24,832 nucleotides of DNA from a virus (Duplodnaviria; Heunggongvirae; Uroviricota; Caudoviricetes), in the IMG/VR virus record IMGVR_UViG_2737471828_000007; one strand, written 5' to 3'. Below the pieces are notes generated by a model that searched no databases, was not told the origin of the DNA, and worked only from the letters and a program-made list of their open reading frames with translations. Positions 13,728 through 23,776 of the stretch are shown here, piece by piece. A program made the position numbers and the translations under genes. Every line of letters starts with the position of its first letter. Position 1 is the stretch's first letter.

Positions 13728-14250
13728 ACCAGAGTTGAACCATTTTCTGGGTGCCGTCAGGCTTGAGATTATCAATTTCAGAGAGAACGTAATATTGAAT
13801 GGCTTCACAAACGGTGGTGTAAGGTGAATTACCTTCTTTAAGTGGCACGATATTATTATTAACGCGAACCTGTATTTCATCGTTATACATTGCGATCGAA
13901 ACAGGAGTGTGCACGAACGCGACTTCGCCAGGTGTGTCGTCAACCACCGTTTCAATACTAAAAGTCAGTTTTCGCTCATCATTGCTGCCCCGTGCTTTGG
14001 GGGTAGCGGCAGGGATCTGGGATAAAGGCATTCTGCGAAATCCTTCGGCTGCTTCCAGTCCGCATGAAACGTAATGCTGGCGATTACCGTCGCTATCTGT
14101 CCAGGTCTGTGATGGCAGCTCCAGCGAGATTTCATAATCATCAACAATGCCCTGGGCAAGGCGTACAAGCGGGGTCAGATCTTCATTGCGGCGAAAGCTC
14201 TCCTTTACCTGCTCCCGTTTTTCTCTTAACTGCTTGTAATTAATGACCAT
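13726..14250 (-). CDS. Hypothetical protein (174 aa), standalone cargo gene next to the expected cos end
   Basis: Track ORF 13726..14289; start placed at internal ATG (MVINYKQLREK...) preceded by GGAGG; convergent with Q; I recognise no family; AT-richer than the flanking structural genes by eye. Confidence 0.65.
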   Translation of the reverse strand: MVINYKQLREKREQVKESFRRNEDLTPLVRLAQGIVDDYEISLELPSQTWTDSDGNRQHYVSCGLEAAEGFRRMPLSQIPAATPKARGSNDERKLTFSIETVVDDTPGEVAFVHTPVSIAMYNDEIQVRVNNNIVPLKEGNSPYTTVCEAIQYYVLSEIDNLKPDGTQKMVQLW

Positions 14251-14289
14251 AAGACAGCCTCCATTGATTTCTTTGCTCGTATTTTGCAC

Positions 14290-14836
14290 TTATGAAGTAT
14301 GATCGGCAAGGTGCCGTATCGCTGACGCGCTTCGCTTGTCTGCTGCTTCGCCGGGGCATAAAAAATTTATGCCCCGACTCTCCAGCTCCTGTATCAATCA
14401 GATAATTTCACGACGCCTTCCAGCTTATTGTCATCATCGACGGTCAGGCTCTTACGCAATCCCGCCGTGCTGACTGCATGTTCTCGTCGCCTCAGTGCGA
14501 TTTTGACGGCCTTATCAGTCACCCCATCAAATCAAAAGTCCTCACGTATTTTTCACGCTCAGCGTGAGAAAGACAGCCATTCTGTTGTGTCGCTGCGACA
14601 TCGTTCAGGGAATGCTGTTTACCCCCTGAAACGCGGGCTGTTCCCCCGTCACCTGCGCGCAGAAAAAGCGCGTTTTTTTGTGCACGCACGGATCCTTGAC
14701 GGATCCAGCCGCCATGCGGGCCGGAAGGGTAAAAAGTCGTTCAAAAAAATTGTGCAAATTTGTGCACTTTTGTGCAAACAAAAAGCGCCCCTGAGGCGCT
14801 TTAGTGTTTTATAGGTTGTGTATATTGGCTGGGTCC
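14290..14836. promoter_or_regulatory. About 550 bp non-coding region with several palindromes and repeats; probable promoter/operator region of the 13726..14250 gene and candidate location of cos
   Basis: No credible ORF (the only track ORF is Arg-rich and low-complexity); 10-bp palindrome GGGGCATAAA/TTTATGCCCC near 14353..14375; TCACGCT-c-AGCGTGA near 14555; TGTCGC-t-GCGACA near 14587; TTGTGCA repeated three times at 10-11 bp spacing near 14749..14778. Confidence 0.5.
14771..14802 (-). terminator. Intrinsic terminator at the end of the parM-parR-orf-orf operon
   Basis: Stem AAAGCGCC/GGCGCTTT with 5-nt loop followed on the minus strand by a T-rich run; about 35 nt downstream of the stop at 14837. 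Confidence 0.65.
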
Positions 14837-15100
14837 TTATCCTGCTGTGCTTTCAACTGATGAGGGGAACAAAATCTTTTCATCAAACCCTGCATTCATA
14901 TCATGGACAGCAACACACCAATCCATTGACGAACGATTATCAAGAGCCTCCATGATTTCATCCATGCGGCGTAGGTCATACAGGTAAATGTTTTTATCGC
15001 CAATGGTGTAAAAACCAATTTTTTTCGGTGATGGACAGCGATCAAGAACGTCCTGTAATTCGCTCAACCATGCTTGTTCTTTTTTTGTCAAAGTTGCCAT
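14837..15100 (-). CDS. Hypothetical protein (87 aa), last gene of the par operon
   Basis: Track ORF 14837..15121 (TTG first); ATG at 15100..15098 with AAGGAGAG RBS, 1 nt after the stop of the upstream gene; no family recognised. Confidence 0.6.
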   Translation of the reverse strand: MATLTKKEQAWLSELQDVLDRCPSPKKIGFYTIGDKNIYLYDLRRMDEIMEALDNRSSMDWCVAVHDMNAGFDEKILFPSSVESTAG

Positions 15101-15101
15101 A

Positions 15102-15533
15102 TCACTCTCCTTTGATGCCAATGTCTACAGCTTGGCAAGCCTCTTTGGTCACCCAGTCAATAGCGTCTTTCCATACTCCAGTTTCGACTGGCGGATTCTC
15201 ACGCTTTACCTGTTCATAGAAACGCACCGCTCTAACCAGTCCATCTGGTACTGCTGGCGCTGGCGGCTCTCGATACATAGGGATAACACGTCGCGGGTCC
15301 GCGTATTTATCTGGCGGACACTGAAATATCTCACCGAAACCATACTGCTTGACATCACGCAGTTCCTCATCATCAGTCCATGCAACAGGTTTCGCTTCCA
15401 GCGATGTGAGTGCGATTTTCAGTGCGATTAACATATTGTGATCGTTTTCATCAAGGCCAAACGGGATGTCTTCACGACACGATTCAAGGTCTGCAATTTT
15501 GCGTTGTAACCATTTTTTGGGGATAGTTGCCAT
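15102..15533 (-). CDS. Hypothetical acidic protein (143 aa), third gene of the par operon
   Basis: ATG at 15533 with GGAGAGGAG RBS, 19 nt after the parR stop; no family recognised. Confidence 0.65.
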   Translation of the reverse strand: MATIPKKWLQRKIADLESCREDIPFGLDENDHNMLIALKIALTSLEAKPVAWTDDEELRDVKQYGFGEIFQCPPDKYADPRRVIPMYREPPAPAVPDGLVRAVRFYEQVKRENPPVETGVWKDAIDWVTKEACQAVDIGIKGE

Positions 15534-15552: not shown

Positions 15553-15867
15553 TCACTCTGGGAAAAATGACTGAATGTTCTTTCTTATCTCGCTAGTGCT
15601 GTGATTGCTTCCGGTGGCAGGTGCGCTGGCATATTTACTCTGAATATTATTCTTGGCTGGCGCAGCTCCTTCTTCCGGCCATTCGGCCAACCAATAGGCA
15701 AATGCAGGATCGCGTTTTATGAGTGCCAGCCCGGCCAGAAAGGCCGCGCGTTGCGCGCGGCTGCGTTCAGAGGCTGGCAGGCTGTCGAGGTAATTACACG
15801 CCTCCCGTTCACTATTGACGGCGACTGGCTTCAGATAGAAACTTATCCGTCTGGTTGGTGTCGTCAT
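15553..15867 (-). CDS. parR: ParR/StbB-like centromere-binding protein (type II partition adaptor)
   Basis: Track ORF 15553..16002; start placed at internal ATG (MTTPTRRISFYLKPVAV...) with AAGGAG RBS, 4 nt after the parM stop; ISFYLKP...LDSLPASERSRAQRAAFLAGLAL resembles plasmid R1 ParR (ribbon-helix-helix N-terminus). Confidence 0.75.
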   Translation of the reverse strand: MTTPTRRISFYLKPVAVNSEREACNYLDSLPASERSRAQRAAFLAGLALIKRDPAFAYWLAEWPEEGAAPAKNNIQSKYASAPATGSNHSTSEIRKNIQSFFPE

Positions 15868-15871
15868 TGGT

Positions 15872-16831
15872 TTACTCCTTGTCCATTGCGTACAGCCCAT
15901 TAACCAGAGCAAACTGTGGCACCCCGTCCGCGATGAAAGTCGCATTAACTCCGCAGGCTTCGCGGATAGCGGGTGCCACAATCTCCGCCCCGCCACCGAC
16001 AACCATCACCCGCCCGTAACCCGAAAAACCCGCCAGCGCGCGGATCACGCGTTGTTTCAGTGTTTCTTCCTTTTCACGAATAACCGCCATCAGGCTGGCG
16101 TAATGCGCGTCATTGTGGATGTGCTGGCGCAGCCAGGCTTCATCATGGCGATGTTCGATAATGGTATTGGCGATGTGGTGACTGGTGCGCATACCGTTAG
16201 TGGCCATCACCGACAGTACGGCATCGGCCATCAGAGAAACGCCTACGTGTGGATCGCAAAACATCTGGCTGATACCTGCCAGTTGCCCCTGAACCTTTGC
16301 CACATCCAGCGTGGTTCCGCCCAAATCCACAATCAGCAGGGATTCAAACGGACTCATGTCAGCCAGTGCCTTAAAGCCAGCCGGAATGGATTCAGGCATA
16401 ACCCGTACGTTACGGATAGTGAATGCTTCGCCGTTCTGGTACTCCACCGGGCGCATAACGTTCGCTTTTTTGCGGTTGATGTTGGTCATGTCCGGCTGTG
16501 CGTTTGTGTCGAAATACTCGCTCAGTGGCAGGGTGACAACCACATCCACCTCCTGTGGCGTGATGCCTGATTTGACCAGCGCGTGATGAATGGCAATGAC
16601 ATTCACATCGCTGTACTGGTATTGCGTGTCGGTCGTCTGGACAAAGCGATCGCTGACCGGATCAAAACCATAGCGCACGCCATCAAGCATATAGTTCGCG
16701 GGCTGCGTGCCACAGAACGGCGCAGACCATTCCGACTTGAAGCTGTTCGGGCTGATGGCGTTGCGGCGTTCGCCGTTCTCAGTCCATGCCAGCTTGATGT
16801 TGGTGGAGCCGTCGTCAATACAAATTTTCAT
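15872..16831 (-). CDS. parM: ParM/StbA-like actin-fold segregation ATPase (type II partition)
   Basis: 319 aa; hallmark ParM motifs IDDGSTNIK, ISPNSF, QYSDVNV..HHAL, VMPESIPAG, DLGGTTLD, GGGAE, LVNG; same length as R1 ParM. Confidence 0.85.
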   Translation of the reverse strand: MKICIDDGSTNIKLAWTENGERRNAISPNSFKSEWSAPFCGTQPANYMLDGVRYGFDPVSDRFVQTTDTQYQYSDVNVIAIHHALVKSGITPQEVDVVVTLPLSEYFDTNAQPDMTNINRKKANVMRPVEYQNGEAFTIRNVRVMPESIPAGFKALADMSPFESLLIVDLGGTTLDVAKVQGQLAGISQMFCDPHVGVSLMADAVLSVMATNGMRTSHHIANTIIEHRHDEAWLRQHIHNDAHYASLMAVIREKEETLKQRVIRALAGFSGYGRVMVVGGGAEIVAPAIREACGVNATFIADGVPQFALVNGLYAMDKE

Positions 16832-16860: not shown

Positions 16861-16975
16861 CGTTTACGGGATTCTGAAATCCCGTTTTTGCCTGTTTTAT
16901 GCGCGCTTCATATATCGCGGCGCGTTTTTTGCTCATTTACGGGATTTGTGAATCCCGTTTTTGTCTGTTTTTTGT
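16861..16975. repeat. parC-like repeat region upstream of parM: two direct repeats of about 38 bp, each with a perfect 8-bp inverted repeat, flanking a GC-rich palindrome
   Basis: TTTACGGGATTCTGAAATCCCGTTTTTGCCTGTTTT (about 16863..16900) and TTTACGGGATTTGTGAATCCCGTTTTTGTCTGTTTT (about 16936..16973), about 73 bp apart; each contains ACGGGATT-N4-AATCCCGT; between them CGCGC...GCGCG followed by T6. Overlaps the 3' end of the A ORF. Confidence 0.6.
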
Positions 16976-19733
16976 TTCCACTGGTCAGGCCACCCCGCAG
17001 CAGGTCTGCTTTGCGGCGGGCGCGTTCAGTGGTTTCACTGATTCTCTGTGCGTGCTCTGCGTCGCGGATGGCGCGCAGCATGTCAGAAAGCACGGTAACG
17101 GGTGTTTTCATGGTGTTCTGGTCTTGCTGAAGTGTGGATGCCAGGCGTGCGGCGGCTTCAGGGTCTGATACCCCAAGCTGTTCCAGATAGCTGGCGACCG
17201 GGTTATGGCGGATCTCCGTGCTGCTTACGCCGTGATTACGGCTCAGGCGTTGCCAGAGCTGCGTGATTCGGCTGTCCGGGCGGGTATCCGGTTTGCGTAC
17301 AATTTCAAATCCCTGCGGTGCAATGATGCTGCCGTCAACGTACAGACTGCCGCCCCGTAACAGGTGCTGCATCTGCTGTTCACCGATATGCAGGCCGAGA
17401 GATTCAGCAGACTCCCGCCATTCTTTAGCGAGTAATTCGTAGTTATCAGGCAAAGGCCGCTGCTGTTTGCGGCTCTGTGTCCAGCTCTGCATTTCATCAC
17501 TGCTGTTTTTTGCCTGTTTGTCACGAAGCGAACGCATCAGCGCCCGGCGTTCGTGCCGTTTCAGTGAGCGCATCCATTCGTTCACTTCAACGCCGTCAGG
17601 GAGCTGCGGCCACGGTGCTGGCCGTTCTTTCGGCTGTTCTGTCCCGTTGTTGTCCGTTTCCTGTACACGGGGACAGTTATTGCCACGAGTCCAAGGGGCG
17701 GCAGGGCCGCCCTGAAGGTCAAAACCATTTTCGCGGGCGCTGTCTTCCGCTTCCGGTTTACGTCTTACCAGCTTCCAGTTATCCGGATGCGTGCACACAC
17801 GGGAGGATTCCCCGATGAATGGCGACCAGATCCCGTAAATCTGTACACTCTGTTCGCCGTAATCGTTCAGCTCATCTGCGAGGTCGTAGGCTGTGCGAAT
17901 CAGGTAGTCCTTGCGCGGAACAAGTACGCCACCCTGTTTTTCAATGTAGGTGGCAAAACATCCGGCATCAGCGGCAGCGAGTACCGCATCCATTGCGTCA
18001 TCCTTCAGCCGTTGCGGGCCTTCCGGGTTGCGTGCCATCTGGCTGGCAAGGCGGCGCAGTTCACGCCACACCTGACGGGAGGGGATGCCAAAGAACTGGA
18101 ACTGGCGGACCCGATGAAGGCGCGCCCAGCCGATGGCGCGCTCCACGCTCTCGGCCATTGATTTTCCGGTTTCGTGGTCAACGCGTGGTTTGCCCGTTTT
18201 CGGGTCGATTCCATCCACGGCGCGGCTGTCCAGGTTTTTTCCGATGTAGGTGGCGATGTAGCTGGTTGGCGTGCCTTTGGAGCCGTCGACGTACTCCACC
18301 TTAAAGCGCGGAGTAATATCATTGCCCAGCTCGTGGCGGTCTTCCTGAATGGCAATATCGCGGGTGATGGCCACGATGCTGTCGATTTCTTCCGGATGAG
18401 CAAAGACCATCATATGCCAGTGCACGGTGCCGTCATGGTGAGGCTCCACCGTGCGGATGCCATACCAGCGCAGGCCGTCGCGGTTCAGTTTTTTGCGGAC
18501 CGCCGCAAAAAACGTGTTAACCAGGTAATCGCTGGAGTCGCGCATGGTGGCCCCGTTCCATTTGGGATTCGGATGACCGTTCTCTGTTGTGGCGTGGTAT
18601 TTTGACGGGCAGGTGACAGTCAGAAACACCGCTTTGTCGCCACGGGCTTCGGCCAGAAGTTCCAGTCCCTTCATGGTGGCCATCATTTCTGCCTTACGGT
18701 GAACCGGGTTACTTACTCCCGCGTAATACACTGTCTCGAGATCAATCGTGAAACCGTCTTCGTTTTCCAGTTCGAAGCTCTTCAGGAAGTCGCGGGTTTT
18801 CTCGCGCTGTGCGCGAAACTCGCTTAACGCGTCCTGGCTCAGATAGGGTGATGTTTTTCTGGAAACCAGACAGGCGGCGCGGAGTTGTTCTTCTCTCCAC
18901 TCACAACGTAACAGCCACAGTTTGCGTTTCCACCAGTCCGCACAGGTCAGGCGAAGGATTGCGCCCGGCAGCAGTTCCGTATCCGGTTCGCTCTTGTTCA
19001 GGGCTTCGTAATGTGGCGGCATGATGTGCAGGCGTAATGCGATACGAGCCAGCATCCGGTAAGCCTTCAACATTACATCCATGGTCAGCTCGCCATCTCT
19101 GGCACCAAAGCCATCGCAGAGTGTTTCGAAGGTGCTGCTGAACATCGCCGCGGTCATGGTGGCCAGCGTCTGTATCTGGTGCTTGTTGAGCTGCGGCAGG
19201 TAAAGCAAATCGTCCAGGCGTTCGCGCCCGGCAAGGGAGCGATAACCCGGTGTCAGCCAGCGTCCGTCAGTGCGATCCAGACGTTCGAATATTTTGCGCA
19301 GGGTTCCGCGTGCATAGCGTTCCGCCTGCCAGCTCTTTTTGCCTTTCTGGCGATCGGCTTCCTGTTTTTTGCGCAGGAAAGAGAGGTGGTGGCTCAGTGG
19401 TTCACGCAGATAAACAGGTAGTGCCTTTAGTGTGGCAAAGGCACGGGCTACCGGGTCTTGTTCTGTTGCCCGGCGCTTACTGATGATGCTCTGTGCCAGC
19501 TTTTCACGCTGTCCGGCTTCCTCAAGGGATGCCATGAGTTTTTTACCCATGGCGGATTGTGCGAAAAAGGCTTCTTCCTTCGCTCCCTGTTCTTCCTGTG
19601 CCCTTTTGTCCGCCTCAAGGTAGTAACGGATGGCGCGTTGCAGGTCGGTTTCAGTTTCCTGCCTGCGCTCCGTAAATCTGGCCGGATCAATGGCTGGCCG
19701 TGGTTCATTCCAGCTCCATGCAAACTCACTCAT
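16908..19733 (-). CDS. A: Replication initiation endonuclease A (rolling-circle, P2 gpA-like)
   Basis: Track ORF 16908..19760 (GTG first); ATG at 19733 abuts the stop of the upstream gene; conserved HHDGTVHWHMMVF metal-binding region and YIATYIGKN active-site tyrosine region typical of P2 A. Confidence 0.85.
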   Translation of the reverse strand: MSEFAWSWNEPRPAIDPARFTERRQETETDLQRAIRYYLEADKRAQEEQGAKEEAFFAQSAMGKKLMASLEEAGQREKLAQSIISKRRATEQDPVARAFATLKALPVYLREPLSHHLSFLRKKQEADRQKGKKSWQAERYARGTLRKIFERLDRTDGRWLTPGYRSLAGRERLDDLLYLPQLNKHQIQTLATMTAAMFSSTFETLCDGFGARDGELTMDVMLKAYRMLARIALRLHIMPPHYEALNKSEPDTELLPGAILRLTCADWWKRKLWLLRCEWREEQLRAACLVSRKTSPYLSQDALSEFRAQREKTRDFLKSFELENEDGFTIDLETVYYAGVSNPVHRKAEMMATMKGLELLAEARGDKAVFLTVTCPSKYHATTENGHPNPKWNGATMRDSSDYLVNTFFAAVRKKLNRDGLRWYGIRTVEPHHDGTVHWHMMVFAHPEEIDSIVAITRDIAIQEDRHELGNDITPRFKVEYVDGSKGTPTSYIATYIGKNLDSRAVDGIDPKTGKPRVDHETGKSMAESVERAIGWARLHRVRQFQFFGIPSRQVWRELRRLASQMARNPEGPQRLKDDAMDAVLAAADAGCFATYIEKQGGVLVPRKDYLIRTAYDLADELNDYGEQSVQIYGIWSPFIGESSRVCTHPDNWKLVRRKPEAEDSARENGFDLQGGPAAPWTRGNNCPRVQETDNNGTEQPKERPAPWPQLPDGVEVNEWMRSLKRHERRALMRSLRDKQAKNSSDEMQSWTQSRKQQRPLPDNYELLAKEWRESAESLGLHIGEQQMQHLLRGGSLYVDGSIIAPQGFEIVRKPDTRPDSRITQLWQRLSRNHGVSSTEIRHNPVASYLEQLGVSDPEAAARLASTLQQDQNTMKTPVTVLSDMLRAIRDAEHAQRISETTERARRKADLLRGGLTSGNKKQTKTGFTNPVNEQKTRRDI

Positions 19734-20119
19734 GGCTGGTATCCCGTCACGCGCTGCCACTCCTGCGAGAAGATGGCGGAAAGGCGGTTAAATTCAGCGG
19801 TGTATTCACTCAGCGAGGCACACCCGCCAGCAGTGCGATGCGCCAGCATTGCCGCAAATACGGAGGCCGGGGAGTCATAATACGCCAGCAGTGATTCGCC
19901 GTGTGGTGTCAGGCAGTGCAACGCCAGCCCGTGTGGTGTGAAATCCACGCGGTAGCAGTCGTCTACTGTGAAATAAAGGGTGTCCGCATTCTCCGGTTTT
20001 GTGGTGCGTGCTCTGTTGTCACGACCACGGATGTAGAGATCAAATAATCCCTGAAGAATGGGAGCCAGACGGGTGTCCTGTGTGCGCACCCATCTTGTGA
20101 AGTCATGAGCGTCAATCAT
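19730..20119 (-). CDS. Hypothetical early protein (129 aa) immediately upstream of A
   Basis: ATG at 20119; stop abuts the A start; position equivalent to P2 orf82/orf83; no family recognised. Confidence 0.6.
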   Translation of the reverse strand: MIDAHDFTRWVRTQDTRLAPILQGLFDLYIRGRDNRARTTKPENADTLYFTVDDCYRVDFTPHGLALHCLTPHGESLLAYYDSPASVFAAMLAHRTAGGCASLSEYTAEFNRLSAIFSQEWQRVTGYQP

Positions 20120-20191
20120 GCTGCAATTCTCTTTACTACAGGTGTGCGAAGGCCTCCCGCCGCAAGGTGCAGGAAAGGCCTGGAACAGGAA

Positions 20192-20422
20192 TTAATGGAG
20201 TTTGTTTTGCTGCTGAAAGAGCTGCTGAAGCTCGCGCAGATCATCCGCCAGATAGCTGAAAACAGCGGATGAATAGAGGTTTGAAAGTTCGCAGCTACGC
20301 TCATGCAGCATATTGATGTGCATGATTTTAGCGACGCGGAATGCGCGGGAAAGTCTGCGGTTGATTTCAGTCTGGATGTGACGACGCTCCGCGATAGCGC
20401 GGTGCTGTTTGCGGTTTGCCAT
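20192..20422 (-). CDS. Hypothetical small basic protein (76 aa)
   Basis: ATG at 20422; N-terminus Arg/Lys-rich (MANRKQHRAIAERRH...); lies downstream of a predicted terminator and structured non-coding island. Confidence 0.5.
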   Translation of the reverse strand: MANRKQHRAIAERRHIQTEINRRLSRAFRVAKIMHINMLHERSCELSNLYSSAVFSYLADDLRELQQLFQQQNKLH

Positions 20423-20439
20423 GGTGTTTGGCCTCTTCG

Positions 20440-20660
20440 TTTGTGAGTTTTTGGATACTCACCAACCAGAGTTGAGAATCTCGGGGTGGCGAGACGTACG
20501 GGGTTCTCAACACCGGCAAACGAAGAAACCGGCCCGACCGAAGTCGGCCCCGTACGCCCCACCATAATTCGTGTGCGAAAAAGACGTGGCAATACAGTAC
20601 GCACAAAAAAACCGCTGGCGCGGTTGTGCGCTTCGTTTGTCAGCAGGTTGAGAATCCCGG
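20440..20660 (-). ncRNA. Candidate structured non-coding element inside the early operon (nested inverted repeats, repeated GTTGAGAATC motif, stable tetraloop hairpin)
   Basis: No credible ORF; GTTGAGAATC at about 20471 and 20648 (direct) and inverted at about 20503; 9-bp inverted repeat CGTACGGGG/CCCCGTACG (about 20495 and 20548) enclosing hairpin GGCCCGAC-CGAA-GTCGGCCC, which reads as a UUCG-loop hairpin on the minus (transcribed) strand. Strand and nature (RNA versus DNA site) not established. Confidence 0.35.
20603..20625 (-). terminator. Intrinsic terminator within the early region (minus strand)
   Basis: Stem AACCGC/GCGGTT with 4-nt loop, followed on the minus strand by T7-8. Confidence 0.6.
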
Positions 20661-20747
20661 CACCCGTTTTATGAGGTGCAGCAGAAATGTAACCTGACTG
20701 ATTGCGGCATGGCAAGCGGTTTTTTTGTGTGTGCATGCTCTGATTTC

Positions 20748-21047
20748 TTACTGGTTCAGAAAAAAATCAAAAACCTTGTCAATGCGTTGCAACAGCTCTT
20801 GCTGTATTGCTTCCGGCGTTTCCGGTTCGCCTGGCGCCTCCAATGTCGCGCAGAAATCAGCGATTTCATGATGGAGCGTCAGGCGAATGGCAGGAGCCGT
20901 GGTTCTGGCGTGCTCCAGCTCATCCAGCAATGCCAGCACCGCAGACGGCGAGAGCATTGCGCGAAATGCCAGTAATTTTTGAGGTGTTGCCATTCGTTGC
21001 AGGGCAAATGCCAGTTCGCGTAGCTTCTGGTGGTTGATGGTGCTCAT
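20748..21047 (-). CDS. Hypothetical early protein (99 aa)
   Basis: ATG with AGGAAG RBS; overlaps the stop of the upstream gene. Confidence 0.6.
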   Translation of the reverse strand: MSTINHQKLRELAFALQRMATPQKLLAFRAMLSPSAVLALLDELEHARTTAPAIRLTLHHEIADFCATLEAPGEPETPEAIQQELLQRIDKVFDFFLNQ

Positions 21048-21310
21048 GTTCTGGCTTCCTTCAGTAGCTGGTTAAACATGTGAGTCAGTGGATTGCTACA
21101 CCCGAACGGCATCGGGTTTACGTGGTAAGAAGCCTGGCCTCCAGTTTTGCGAGCGCGACCACCTGTGCTGCGGTTTGTTCTGATGACTAAGCCGCCGCGC
21201 CAAAGTTGGCGTAACTCAGCATTAATGGCTGTGGTTGGAGTATTCAGTGCTGCTGCGATTTCTCCGCCGCTACAACCCGGATGGGTAGCGATGTAGTCCA
21301 GAATGGTCAT
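21044..21310 (-). CDS. Putative winged-helix DNA-binding protein (88 aa)
   Basis: ILDYIATHPGCSGGEIAAALNTPTTAINAELRQLWRGGLV is a typical helix-turn-helix/wing pattern; ATG at 21310. Confidence 0.6.
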   Translation of the reverse strand: MTILDYIATHPGCSGGEIAAALNTPTTAINAELRQLWRGGLVIRTNRSTGGRARKTGGQASYHVNPMPFGCSNPLTHMFNQLLKEART

Positions 21311-21510
21311 CTGCGTGGCTCCTGTACCTGTCGGATAAGATTCACCCGCGCCACGTTGGTGGCGCAGAAATAAGTGCCGTCAGTGAGGTAGATGTGGTGT
21401 GCATCCTTTTCCGAACGATGTTTGTCGATAGTGGTAATCAGTCGTTCGTCGACCTCGTATTCGCGCCCTCTGGAGGTAAAGCGAACGACGGGAAAATGCT
21501 TAATTGCCAT
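21307..21510 (-). CDS. Hypothetical early protein (67 aa)
   Basis: ATG with GGGGGG RBS; overlaps the start of the downstream gene. Confidence 0.55.
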   Translation of the reverse strand: MAIKHFPVVRFTSRGREYEVDERLITTIDKHRSEKDAHHIYLTDGTYFCATNVARVNLIRQVQEPRR

Positions 21511-21534
21511 TGCGCCCCCCTTTGTCCAGTAACC

Positions 21535-21945
21535 CTATGCGTTAAATACGGTGTGTCGGGCGTCATCAATGAATGCAACTTGAGAGCGCTCTATCAGGCG
21601 GAGATTTGTCAGAAGCGCTGATTCCCTTATGGGGTGAGGAGTGATCAGGTATTTGTCCTGTAATCCGGCAATAATGGTGTATCGCTGTAGCTCCGAGCCA
21701 ATTGTGTAAATAAGGCGTCCGGTGTTAGATAAATCCAGTCCGGTGACTGGTTGAGTTTTGAAAAGCGTAAGTTCCGCACCCTGTTCTTCGATGATTTTGG
21801 CGGCTTCTGCCGTGACTTTTGCGACTATCATTGTGTGGGTCGCGACGTCTATATGATTATTTGCTACGGCTTTTTTCGCTACTTCGCTTTCCATCTTTGA
21901 AATTTCTTTCAGTGCTCTGATGATACCTTCTTCTTTTGCGTGCAT
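21535..21945 (-). CDS. Hypothetical early protein (136 aa)
   Basis: ATG with GGAGA RBS; no family recognised. Confidence 0.6.
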   Translation of the reverse strand: MHAKEEGIIRALKEISKMESEVAKKAVANNHIDVATHTMIVAKVTAEAAKIIEEQGAELTLFKTQPVTGLDLSNTGRLIYTIGSELQRYTIIAGLQDKYLITPHPIRESALLTNLRLIERSQVAFIDDARHTVFNA

Positions 21946-22038
21946 TTTTGTATCTCCGTTATCTGCGTGTGCGAATACCTCCGTTAATACGGATGGTTTT
22001 CACGTTTTCTTATTTAATTTGATGTTTTATTTGTATCG

Positions 22039-22152
22039 TTATTCACCAGTGAAAAAACGTTCAATCTTTTTTACTGAATGAATAATTCGCATAATCCCAA
22101 TGGCGCAGGCCACTGAAATAATCAGAGCAAGCCATGAAATAAATATACTCAT
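22039..22152 (-). CDS. Small hydrophobic peptide (37 aa), below the ORF-track size cutoff
   Basis: ATG overlaps the TGA of the upstream gene (ATGA); translation MSIFISWLALIISVACAIGIMRIIHSVKKIERFFTGE gives one predicted transmembrane helix plus a basic tail. Confidence 0.4.
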   Translation of the reverse strand: MSIFISWLALIISVACAIGIMRIIHSVKKIERFFTGE

Positions 22153-22391
22153 GCGATATTCCCCAGCTTATACGGTTCAATATGTTCCCCGCATTCTGCG
22201 GCACAGATTAGCTCGGAAAGTTCGTTAAGTGCATCCAGATCATCAGCGTAAAAAGCCACGTCATACAGACTCCGGATTGCCCTGGTCAATGAGTCACGGG
22301 CTGCACGTTCAGCATGAGCGCCTGATGCACTTAAGCGAAAATAAAAACGCTCAAGTGCTTTGTTAATGAGAGTTTTATATTCTTTGCCCAT
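22149..22391 (-). CDS. Hypothetical early protein (80 aa)
   Basis: ATG at 22391; in the early operon between cox and A. Confidence 0.55.
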   Translation of the reverse strand: MGKEYKTLINKALERFYFRLSASGAHAERAARDSLTRAIRSLYDVAFYADDLDALNELSELICAAECGEHIEPYKLGNIA

Positions 22392-22402
22392 CGCAACGCC
22401 CT

Positions 22403-22681
22403 TTAATCTGCTTTCTGAATTTCAGCTTCTGAATCCATACAAATAATTTCGATATATGGTTCATCGCCATTAACCTGACGTGCCTTTTCAGCTTCGCTAA
22501 TGATTTCTCGCACGGTCTGGTACGGAAGCTCCACAGTCAAGCGCGTACCGTTCAGATAAACGTAAGTAGCTGCGTTTTTTTCGGATGGAACAACTCCGTC
22601 AATGGCTGATGCGCGTAATAACAGTTCACCGCGAAAATCAATAAAACGGATAAATACACCTTGTGCATGCTCTTTGGTCAT
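22403..22681 (-). CDS. Hypothetical early protein (92 aa)
   Basis: Track ORF 22403..22741; start placed at internal ATG (MTKEHAQGVF...) so it does not overlap the upstream gene. Confidence 0.55.
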   Translation of the reverse strand: MTKEHAQGVFIRFIDFRGELLLRASAIDGVVPSEKNAATYVYLNGTRLTVELPYQTVREIISEAEKARQVNGDEPYIEIICMDSEAEIQKAD

Positions 22682-22691
22682 AAAGCACCTG

Positions 22692-23033
22692 TTATAAATC
22701 AGCCTGTTTAATAAAACTTTGCCCGCGAAGCAGACGATCAACCGTGCGTAGTGCTTCGTATAATGTGAAATCCTGCCCGAACTGATTGTCGCCGCAGCTC
22801 AATGCAAAAATGCGGTTTCCGGTAAACGGATTGCGTGGACATTTGCGGACCACGATTCCAGCTTTCTCAATCAGCCAGGCATGCTCGCCGATTTGTTTTA
22901 CTGGGTAGCCATCCGGCGTTGCGTGTGTATCACTCAGGCTGTAGCGGATGTTGCTGCGTGATGCGCTGGTAGCGAAACGGTTAGCGTGGCGTTCAGCACC
23001 ATTACGAAAGCGTGAATTACGTTGCTGTTTCAT
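22692..23033 (-). CDS. Hypothetical early protein (113 aa), first gene after cox
   Basis: ATG with GGGAG RBS; position equivalent to P2 orf78 / 186 cII, but I see no helix-turn-helix. Confidence 0.6.
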   Translation of the reverse strand: MKQQRNSRFRNGAERHANRFATSASRSNIRYSLSDTHATPDGYPVKQIGEHAWLIEKAGIVVRKCPRNPFTGNRIFALSCGDNQFGQDFTLYEALRTVDRLLRGQSFIKQADL

Positions 23034-23051
23034 ATCAAAACTCCCTGCATC

Positions 23052-23378
23052 TCATGCAGCAAAATTAAGAAAGCCTAATCCCAAATCTTCCGCCAGCTTC
23101 TTAGCTTTATTAAGCCAGTGGTTGCGCCAATCTTTACGCTCAGGAGGAAGCTGTTTCGTTGCGTCATAGACCATTTCGAGCCACTCGTTCCATAAGATGA
23201 GGAGGCGGCGTGAACTTCCTTCCTCGCCTAAAACTTCACGCTCAGTAGCCAGAGGGATGAGCCGACGTTCCACCAACTTTCTTACGGCTGATTCGGTCTT
23301 GCCCGTGCGGCGGGCAAATTCATCGACGGTGATGGGGTCTGGGATCTTAAACAATGCCCTCAATAGTTCTTCATTCAT
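23052..23378 (-). CDS. cox: Cox/Apl-like excision and switch regulator
   Basis: Track ORF 23052..23447; start placed at internal ATG (MNEELLRALFKIPDPITVDEFARRTGKTESAVRKLVER...) with GGGAG RBS; small helix-turn-helix protein divergent from the C repressor. Confidence 0.7.
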   Translation of the reverse strand: MNEELLRALFKIPDPITVDEFARRTGKTESAVRKLVERRLIPLATEREVLGEEGSSRRLLILWNEWLEMVYDATKQLPPERKDWRNHWLNKAKKLAEDLGLGFLNFAA

Positions 23379-23473
23379 GTGATAATCTCCCTGTTTGGGG
23401 TATTTCTTGCGACGGATGCCCCAAATCAAACTCATTTGTATAAACATTAATACAGACGTTGGAGAATTGCAAC
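23379..23473. promoter_or_regulatory. Immunity switch region between cox and C (early and repressor promoters with operators)
   Basis: 95 bp between divergent cox and C starts; 7-bp inverted repeat TTTGGGG-N18-CCCCAAA (about 23394..23425) and palindrome TGTAT-N8-ATACA (about 23437..23454). Confidence 0.6.
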
Positions 23474-23776
23474 ATGCGTATGACTATTGGAGAGCGCATA
23501 AAAATCATGCGTGAAAGCGAGAGACTTACTAGCCTCCCGGATACAGCAAAAATGCTTGGTTTAAACCGTGATGCTCTGTGGAGATATGAAAGCGGTAAAA
23601 CTATCCCTAATGCTGAAGTAATTGAGCAAATACTAAACAACCCCAGATTTGAGAAATATGCGTTGTGGTTTATGACTGGAAAAATTGCGCCTGAATCCGG
23701 GCAGATAGCTCCGGCTCTCGCACACTATGGGCAAGAGCCAACGGACTTACCCCCATCCGAAAGGAAAATTGGTTAA
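23474..23776 (+). CDS. C: Immunity repressor C (P2 C-like)
   Basis: Track ORF 23459..23776; start at ATG 23474 with GGAGA RBS; C-terminal WFMTGKIAPESGQIAPALAHYGQ closely matches the P2 C repressor. Confidence 0.85.
   Translation: MRMTIGERIKIMRESERLTSLPDTAKMLGLNRDALWRYESGKTIPNAEVIEQILNNPRFEKYALWFMTGKIAPESGQIAPALAHYGQEPTDLPPSERKIG

Follow-up and report, generated by a model that had tools for sequence, protein, structure and literature searches.

An IsrK-C4 RNA cassette next to an epsilon-family gene in the early operon of a P88-like prophage

A 24,832-nt stretch of Caudoviricetes DNA (IMG/VR record IMGVR_UViG_2737471828_000007; the whole stretch is called the window here) contains the early operon of a P88-like prophage of Escherichia coli. 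This operon runs from cox to the replication gene A and has three parts: eight small genes after cox, an RNA cassette, and the genes orf76, orf129 and A (small open reading frames, ORFs, are named by their length in amino acids). The cassette consists of two RNA elements, related to IsrK/P4 seqA and to C4/P4 CI, which carry complementary recognition segments that covary in three places, and it directly precedes orf76, a homolog of the P4 epsilon protein. We consider it probable (about 0.7) that this is a P88-like early operon with an RNA gate of the P4/P1 type on its anti-repressor, and possibly also on orf129 and A. Promoter activity, RNA processing, a translational block, polarity on A and binding to the C repressor are the predicted components of this scheme.

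The RNA cassette

An Rfam scan of the whole window gave exactly two matches above the gathering score, one to the IsrK and one to the C4 family (Table 1). Both lie on the operon strand within the 325-nt interval 20423-20747, the sole long non-coding gap of the operon, which had gone unmentioned in the first-pass annotation; for annotation purposes, the only 'empty' gap of the operon is its most informative part. IsrK has been equated with P4 seqA and C4 with P4 CI, and such cassettes are found in P1, P7, N15, lambdoid prophages and phage-inducible chromosomal islands (PMC3632133, PMC4825925, PMC10111431). Phage P88 also has both Rfam families.

The cassette opens with a putative promoter, recognized by a consensus scan, and nearly all bases of its two hexamers are invariant in 39 distinct relatives. 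A terminator scan identified an intrinsic terminator-like hairpin in IsrK (20610-20625), followed by seven T residues, which is nearly invariant as well. The minimum free energy fold of the C4 element (-48.6 kcal/mol) shows the long stem and two hairpins that are the shape of the family, leaves the b' loop and the a' segment unpaired, and has CCACCC as the 3' end. By analogy with known C4 RNAs, this RNA is predicted to be processed by RNase P and to act in trans in immunity.

Two short words link the parts of the cassette. The specificity segments of C4 are b', the complement of 20517-20525, and a', the complement of 20504-20511. The 9-mer CAAACGAAG occurs three times in the whole window, against a chance expectation of 0.24, and all three copies are in the cassette: as b1 in IsrK (20631-20639), as b2 downstream of C4 (20435-20443), and as the complement of the C4 loop. 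The 8-mer TTCTCAAC likewise occurs three times in the window, only in the cassette, as a1 (20647-20654), as a2 (20471-20478) and as the complement of a'. Site b2 overlaps the AAGAGG Shine-Dalgarno sequence of orf76 (20432-20437), which stands 9 nt before the ATG.

Taken without orf76, the IsrK-C4 segment has 67-74% identity to sequences in 143 phage records (H40-H70 among them), mostly Stx-converting lambdoid phages, in which it is usually unannotated. In the literature, no description of an IsrK-C4 cassette in a P2-family phage was found.

Covariation of the recognition segments

The alignment in which intermolecular pairs were counted has 40 module sequences, 39 of them distinct, taken from IMG/VR, E. 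albertii and Salmonella. The C4 loops pair with a2/b2 in 93.5% of cells, compared to 70.1% in column shuffles, and none of 500 shuffles reached the observed value; 139 cells are changed on both sides, against 38.5 in the shuffles. Sliding the segments by 1-3 columns leaves 39-50% of cells paired. The upstream copies behave in the same way: a1/b1 and the C4 loops pair in 95.6% of cells (68.7% when shuffled), with 145 double-changed cells compared to 38.6, and in 26-55% of cells after a slide of 1-3 columns.

Sixteen a'/b' combinations are present among 82 P88-like loci. They show free assortment against the C repressor, of which there are at least 11 clusters, and the C type of the window itself occurs with seven of the combinations. 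The three-way matching together with the free assortment implies that selection keeps the three sites of the RNA code matched, even as the code diversifies without regard to the protein immunity type. A code that is matched and yet diversifies is the signature of a trans-acting specificity determinant. The natural co-varying types of loop and target also provide a ready-made specificity table.

The orf76 protein and the C repressor

The Pfam family to which orf76 belongs, PF25738, is built around P4 epsilon, which is a full-length member scoring 170 bits. A pairwise BLASTP comparison of orf76 with P4 epsilon returned an E-value of 1e-8 at 29% identity, and the name given by the Prokaryotic Genome Annotation Pipeline (PGAP) is 'derepression protein'. 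We regard orf76 as a candidate anti-repressor that would bind C.

The C repressor of the window, encoded just outside the block, keeps the helix-5 residues equivalent to T67 and I70 of P2 C, the sites of P4 E-insensitive and weakened mutants, at which binding of P4 E is abolished or weakened (PMC2995052). Among the related loci L086-L165, C falls into at least 11 clusters that are 34-100% identical to the window protein; the DNA-binding halves vary, and a helix-5/C-terminal motif, KY..W......GQ(I/V)(A/S)P, is kept. Allele type I of orf76 accompanies all 25 C alleles reading KYALWFMTGKI and 6 of the 35 others, counts that are uncorrected for relatedness. The retention of T67 and I70, the shared helix-5 motif and the association of allele and motif make orf76 a candidate anti-repressor of its own C. 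The cox allele co-varies with C, and the cox type of the window is present in 20 of 59 loci only.

Identity and spread of the element

Over 19730-23447 the window agrees at 100% identity with a stretch of the E. coli 23CRST001 chromosome, and this region is matched in 1467 of 5426 complete E. coli genomes; the RNA cassette was found in 1184 of the 5426. The best matches in phage collections are P88-like phages (genus Xuanwuvirus, family Peduoviridae), with 89-94% identity. In the identical chromosome, the PGAP order is integrase, P2 C-type repressor, divergent cox, ten small genes and an A gene of 941 codons, after which come ParM, a partition protein and P2-type late genes. The block is thus a common, widely shared early operon of a P88-like (Xuanwuvirus, P2-family) E. 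coli prophage.

In a contig scan with one genome per species, only three orf76 loci were recovered, from E. albertii, Salmonella enterica and a 'Vagococcus' contig. The last (L088, NZ_JBQPOM010000071.1, 'Vagococcus sp.') is a contig with a Gram-positive label that carries an enterobacterial-type IsrK-C4-orf76 module, its orf76 being 83% identical; it is probably an assembly contamination.

Gene content of the operon

ORFs were taken from a six-frame listing, and the ten minus-strand ORFs between cox and A agree with PGAP. As the first-pass annotation had stated, there are about ten small genes here, of 113, 92, 80, 37, 136, 67, 88, 99, 76 and 129 amino acids in the order of the operon (Table 1). 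In 8 of 8 ORFs tested, variation among relatives is dominated by the third codon position, and these are therefore real genes. The packing is looser than had been described: overlapping stops and starts are seen at 4 of the 11 junctions (4-nt ATGA overlaps), and the others are six gaps of 10-93 nt and the gap that holds the cassette.

The description of these genes as ORFans does not hold. Nine of the ten match PHROG families (E-values from 3e-38 to 8.5e-70), two belong to Pfam families of the DUF type and one to the Pfam 'Derepression' (P4 epsilon) family, and the region recurs in the E. coli genomes counted above and in P88-like phage genomes. Homolog clusters number 20 for orf129, 73 for orf136 and 62 for orf80, nearly all of them from Escherichia or Shigella. 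The small genes are conserved families confined to the P88-like lineage of Escherichia, Salmonella and Citrobacter, for which 'conserved, lineage-restricted, function unknown' is the accurate label. Profile searches with each ORF gave Pfam or PHROG families for most, and most of the proteins are without an assigned function. NCBIfam gave no name for any ORF, searches of PDB sequences with orf136, orf129, orf113 and orf76 returned nothing below E = 0.18, and a literature search on DUF4761 and DUF4754 returned nothing.

Table 1. Features of the early operon and its immediate surroundings, in window coordinates. Gene presence (n/59 loci) was scored across 59 related IMG/VR loci with enough flanking sequence.
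Feature	Coordinates	Strand	Description
C immunity repressor	23474-23776	+	P2 C family; just outside the block; 52% identical to P2 C, E = 4e-34; HTH Pfam matches
cox	23052-23378	-	First gene of early operon; Pfam Phage_Cox, 27.8 bits (cut-off 27.5)
orf113, DUF4761	22692-23033	-	PF15958, E = 7e-69; phrog_2492; 59/59 loci
orf92 (ATG start)	22403-22681	-	phrog_3800, E = 7.5e-59; 59/59 loci; PGAP coding sequence of 279 nt
orf80, DUF4754	22149-22391	-	PF15946, E = 2.8e-54; 59/59 loci
orf37	22039-22152	-	37-aa hydrophobic peptide; 58/59 loci, 84-100% identity
orf136	21535-21945	-	phrog_9338, E = 8.5e-70; 32/59 loci; accessory gene in a variable slot
orf67	21307-21510	-	phrog_3459, E = 1.1e-45; 59/59 loci; 4-nt overlap with orf88
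orf88	21044-21310	-	Winged helix; PF12802, 29.1 bits (cut-off 27); phrog_1687; 52/59 loci
orf99	20748-21047	-	phrog_4144, E = 3.3e-62; 48/59 loci; last gene before the RNA cassette
Promoter-like site	20687-20715	-	TTGCCA-17 nt-TTACAT, consensus scan; ends 8 nt before the IsrK 5' end
IsrK/P4 seqA-like leader RNA	20605-20679	-	Rfam RF01394, 62 bits (gathering score 50)
C4/P4 CI-like antisense RNA	20482-20569	-	Rfam RF01695, 79.2 bits (gathering score 45); model positions 1-87 of 87
Downstream target sites	20432-20478	-	a2 20471-20478 and b2 20433-20443, small hairpin between them, then orf76 start
orf76	20192-20422	-	P4 epsilon 'derepression' homolog; PF25738, 29.3 bits (cut-off 27); 59/59 loci
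Speculative eta-like read-through frame	20116-20736	-	206 codons; spans promoter-like site, IsrK, C4 and all of orf76 in the +1 frame
orf129	19730-20119	-	Variable slot directly upstream of A; 4-nt overlap with A; 15/59 loci
A, replication endonuclease	16908-19733	-	941 aa; last gene of the transcription unit; PF05840, E = 5.7e-130; 58/59 loci

The assignment of cox is supported by BLASTP to P2 Cox (3e-7) and by the PGAP name 'Cox family DNA-binding protein'. The gene orf92 would encode 112 residues if an upstream TTG were used, and all 62 homolog clusters of orf80 come from Escherichia or close relatives. For orf37, variation by codon position is 9/4/15 and the P88 annotation reads membrane protein; the peptide is predicted to be a single-helix membrane peptide. 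Homologs of orf136 occur only in E. coli and Shigella, and only an N-terminal helical hairpin is confident in its AlphaFold2 model (mean predicted local distance difference test score 66.8).

The winged helix noticed earlier at 21044-21310 was borne out by a match to Pfam MarR_2 (E = 1.1e-6), in which residues 2-53 of orf88 align with profile positions 9-61. At 88 residues, the protein is without the full-length MarR architecture of about 140 residues with flanking dimerisation helices, and it is classed as a winged helix-turn-helix DNA-binding protein of the MarR type. In the 246-residue family phrog_19053, residues 84-135 match orf67 and residues 162-243, the C-terminal winged-helix part, match orf88. 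These successive matches within one family, and the 4-nt overlap of the genes, suggest that orf67 and orf88 probably act together as a regulator.

The next gene, orf99, resembles Ead/Ea22 (PF13935) over residues 25-51 only, at 22.8 bits and below the cut-off of 27. A homolog in another genome carries the PGAP label 'ash family protein, incomplete'. Phage_ASH (PF10554) matches the P4 ORF that overlaps the CI RNA, whereas P4 epsilon matches PF25738. In a published census of P4-like satellites, epsilon was recognised by PF10554 (PMC8628076). These family labels concern 20748-21047 and 20116-20736 of the window, on 1232-1519 of L166 and on 8168-8584 of L003.

The model of orf129 has four strands and two helices at moderate confidence, with no fold match found. 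As a homolog of P4 orf151 it was rejected, since the two gave no alignment, and its similarity to P2/186 orf83 (E = 0.13-0.19) is at chance level. Homologs carry the NCBI name 'inositol monophosphatase', which looks like a propagated mis-annotation because orf129 has neither a Pfam nor an NCBIfam match.

The E-values of A in BLASTP were 4.5e-98 against 186 A and 1.9e-82 against P2 A. The alignment to these proteins covers only about residues 98-745 and the Pfam match residues 185-504, so that a C-terminal extension of about 200 residues is unmatched. Downstream, A is adjoined by genes for a ParM segregation ATPase (15872-16831, minus strand) and a plasmid partition/stability protein (15556-15867, minus strand). 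These genes hint that this P2-family prophage might be able to maintain itself in plasmid form in the manner of P4, P1 and N15, all of which use C4-type RNAs as well. Past the partition genes, at 14049-15492 on the minus strand, are a ClpX-type zinc-finger protein, a hypothetical protein and a second Ead/Ea22-like protein, at the position of the LexA-controlled tum anti-repressor gene in 186.

The first-pass annotation had also found no gene of the size of P2 B (166 aa) or 186 CII (169 aa), and no homolog of either is detectable: with the two sequences from the reference genomes, the best tblastn E-values in the window were 0.26 and 0.40, and BLASTP and phmmer searches of the window proteins gave no match to 186 CII below E = 0.5. 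In an all-versus-all comparison with every early protein of P2, 186 and P4, only three links emerged, namely Cox with P2 Cox, A with 186 A and P2 A, and orf76 with P4 epsilon. DUF4754 was considered as a remnant of P2 B on the basis of BLASTP and phmmer E-values of 0.009-0.02 in a 28-sequence database, and was rejected at an hhalign probability of 2.5%. The annotated early operon of 186 has no B homolog either, and its absence here is therefore unremarkable within the family. Taken together, the earlier interpretation is right in that most of the proteins are without a function and B and CII homologs are missing, and wrong in calling the genes ORFans.

A proposed mechanism and its rivals

The mechanism that we propose is built by analogy with P1 c4-icd/ant, P4 CI-seqA/seqC and Gifsy-1 IsrK-AnrP. 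The cassette promoter would be active in the lysogen, the IsrK terminator would stop most transcripts, and those that read through would be processed into C4 RNA. Its loops b' and a' would pair with b2 and a2 of the mRNA, and as b2 covers the Shine-Dalgarno sequence, orf76 would not be translated. The untranslated orf76 message would expose the transcript to Rho-dependent polarity, and orf129 and A would be held down. In P1 c4 and P4 CI, occlusion of the ribosome-binding site of the first downstream ORF leads to Rho exposure and silencing of the distal genes (summarised in PMC10111431, PMC3632133). C4 could keep orf76, and probably A, off in two settings: on mRNA started at the cassette promoter, and in superinfecting genomes that have the same RNA type. 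The a1/b1 copies in IsrK may either aid termination and processing, as in the P4 model, or titrate C4 and release orf76, as in the Gifsy-1 model. Once freed, orf76 would act on the C repressor by binding it, which would commit the phage to lytic development.

Several points weigh against this scheme. The role of the P88-like cassette is predicted from sequence, and polarity on A is pure inference. The match of orf76 to its family is marginal (29.3 bits against a cut-off of 27, with 29% identity to epsilon), and its association with the helix-5 motif is uncorrected for relatedness. Conservation is far higher for orf76 (83-100%) than for C (34-100%), which makes it less than obvious that the anti-repressor is strictly cognate. 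The wiring also differs from that of P4, where the first ORF after seqC is kil/eta and not epsilon. Finally, 7 of the 10 small proteins are without a function, which leaves most of the operon unexplained.

It is possible, with the balance of our judgement on the other side, that IsrK serves as an activator as in Gifsy-1 and that the cassette is an induction trigger rather than an immunity device. IsrK contains exact copies of both C4 target words, which co-vary with the C4 loops, and overexpression of Gifsy-1 IsrK, which is needed for prophage induction, raises translation of the anti-repressor more than 100-fold (PMC4825925). P88 came from cultures that had been exposed to mitomycin C (PMC5285337), and no LexA box that could serve as an induction input was found in the window, the sole CTGT-N8-ACAG match lying inside A with a GC-rich spacer. 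In P4, however, the same elements give immunity by premature termination (PMC3632133, PMC10111431), and the many specificity types that assort independently of C are expected of a trans-acting immunity determinant. The two roles are not mutually exclusive. A further way of operating the cassette, which we consider doubtful, would make the eta-like frame the switch: on Pe transcripts, ribosomes translating the 206 codons across IsrK and C4 would open up the terminator and the C4 fold and continue by coupling to orf129 and A, whereas transcripts from the internal promoter, without a start codon, would terminate. P4 eta offers a precedent, since termination is overridden when eta is translated from upstream transcripts (PMC10111431). 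Among 61 variants, 59 keep the frame open, although these are closely related and its openness therefore counts as about one observation. Its ATG lies at most 14 nt from the stop of whichever gene is upstream, in several contexts, and at its far end an ATGA overlap joins it to the next start; its weak Phage_ASH match (E = 7.7e-4, where the P4 ORF over the CI RNA scores 59.7 bits) is below the Pfam cut-off. There is no codon periodicity across orf76, and stop-free alternative frames of at least 200 codons are common in this GC-rich window.

The first-pass annotation had viewed the block mainly as a reservoir of host-takeover and anti-defence proteins, that is, of small unrelated cargo genes. 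Seven ORFs without an assignable function or fold are compatible with this, as are the two variable slots, occupied by orf136 in 32 and by orf129 in 15 of the 59 loci and by other inserts in P88, and a fall of the GC content to 0.41 over 22001-22500 (orf92, DUF4754 and orf37), compared to about 0.55 elsewhere. The other small genes, however, are present in 48-59 of the 59 relatives, and such near-universal presence at high identity fits core phage roles better than arms-race cargo. PADLOC returned no relevant match, none of the ORFs hitting a defence-related model, and the sole interpretable part of the block is regulatory. We therefore think cargo unlikely as the main explanation; anti-defence or host-takeover roles are possible, especially for orf136 and orf129, and nothing was found that points there. 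Very unlikely, in our view, is the replacement of the P2 B helicase loader by one of the small proteins in a non-homologous manner. Direct evidence for it is lacking, the unmatched C-terminal extension of A being the only feature that could be cited; no sequence or profile similarity to B was detected, and replication proceeds in 186 although its early operon has no annotated B homolog. Phage 186 depends on host DnaC.

The RNA gate on the anti-repressor can be extended, tentatively and in a form that we think rather improbable as a whole, to a two-key immunity. One key would be the C protein, with at least 11 types, and the other an independently assorting RNA code, with at least 16 a'/b' types, that gates a helix-5-matched epsilon-type anti-repressor and, via polarity, A. 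The RNA switch would then be both induction trigger and superinfection barrier, without a RecA-cleavable repressor or a LexA-controlled anti-repressor, and the epsilon 'weapon' of the satellites would be a device of the helpers that satellites have borrowed or share. Textbooks present P2 as the non-inducible phage and P4 epsilon as the tool with which a satellite derepresses it. Here a full seqA/CI-type cassette with an epsilon homolog sits inside a P2-family early operon, in a lineage that about a quarter of the complete E. coli genomes carry, and this suggests that helper-type phages have RNA-based immunity and anti-repression as native elements of their regulation. P4-type satellites could potentially use P88-like phages as helpers, and the cassette offers a testable handle on induction and mutual exclusion of their prophages.

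Comparison with known systems

The closest counterpart is the immunity region of P4, with the order PLE - seqA - CI RNA - seqC - kil/eta - epsilon - alpha. Both systems place the two Rfam families in the same order, followed by an epsilon-family gene and a replication gene, and in both two recognition segments are each repeated upstream and downstream, with the downstream b site over a Shine-Dalgarno sequence; the words themselves differ in P4. Combinatorial types are also common to the two, with 13 a'/b' combinations in 79 P4-like satellite loci and 16 in the 82 P88-like loci. Cross-talk between the RNAs of the two groups was considered and rejected: no recognition type is common to the P4-like loci sampled, the two sets sharing no a' segment, no b' loop and no combination. 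Unlike P4, the element in the window is a complete P2-family phage of the helper type and not a satellite. Its epsilon homolog is the first ORF after the RNA, whereas in P4 epsilon follows about 250 nt further, after kil/eta; its replication gene encodes an A-type nickase rather than the alpha primase; and orf129 is unrelated to P4 orf151.

In the immI region of P1 and P7 (c4 - icd - ant), the c4 antisense RNA arises from the very transcript that it controls, uses the a1 b1/a' b'/a2 b2 logic to control an anti-repressor, and forms a second immunity determinant beside the protein repressor. The window shares this antisense logic, and the Rfam C4 family was defined on the P1/P7 RNAs. It differs in that the candidate anti-repressor is a 76-residue epsilon-type protein and not Ant, and in that the cassette sits inside a replication operon.

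The Gifsy-1 system of Salmonella (IsrK - STnc1160/orf45 - AnrP) is similar in that its IsrK has a terminator and is also read through into a longer transcript, a C4-like RNA follows downstream, and the regulated gene encodes an anti-repressor; short IsrK acts in trans to activate translation of the anti-repressor operon and to promote induction (PMC4825925). In contrast to the window, it is part of a lambdoid prophage, has the upstream coupling ORF orf45 and an anti-repressor of another family, and leads to the antiterminator AntQ as its output.

With P2 and 186, the window shares the C/Cox-type switch and the A-type replication nickase that ends the operon, and, with 186, a gene that overlaps the start of A (186 orf84). 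No homolog of P2 orf78, B and orf80-83 or of 186 cII, fil, dhr and orf79-84 was detectable in the window, and neither the isrK nor the C4 Rfam family was found in P2 or 186. The operon thus adds a P2-family phage to a known kind of system, with an IsrK-C4 switch coupled to an epsilon-type gene ahead of the replication gene and natural covariation of unusual clarity.

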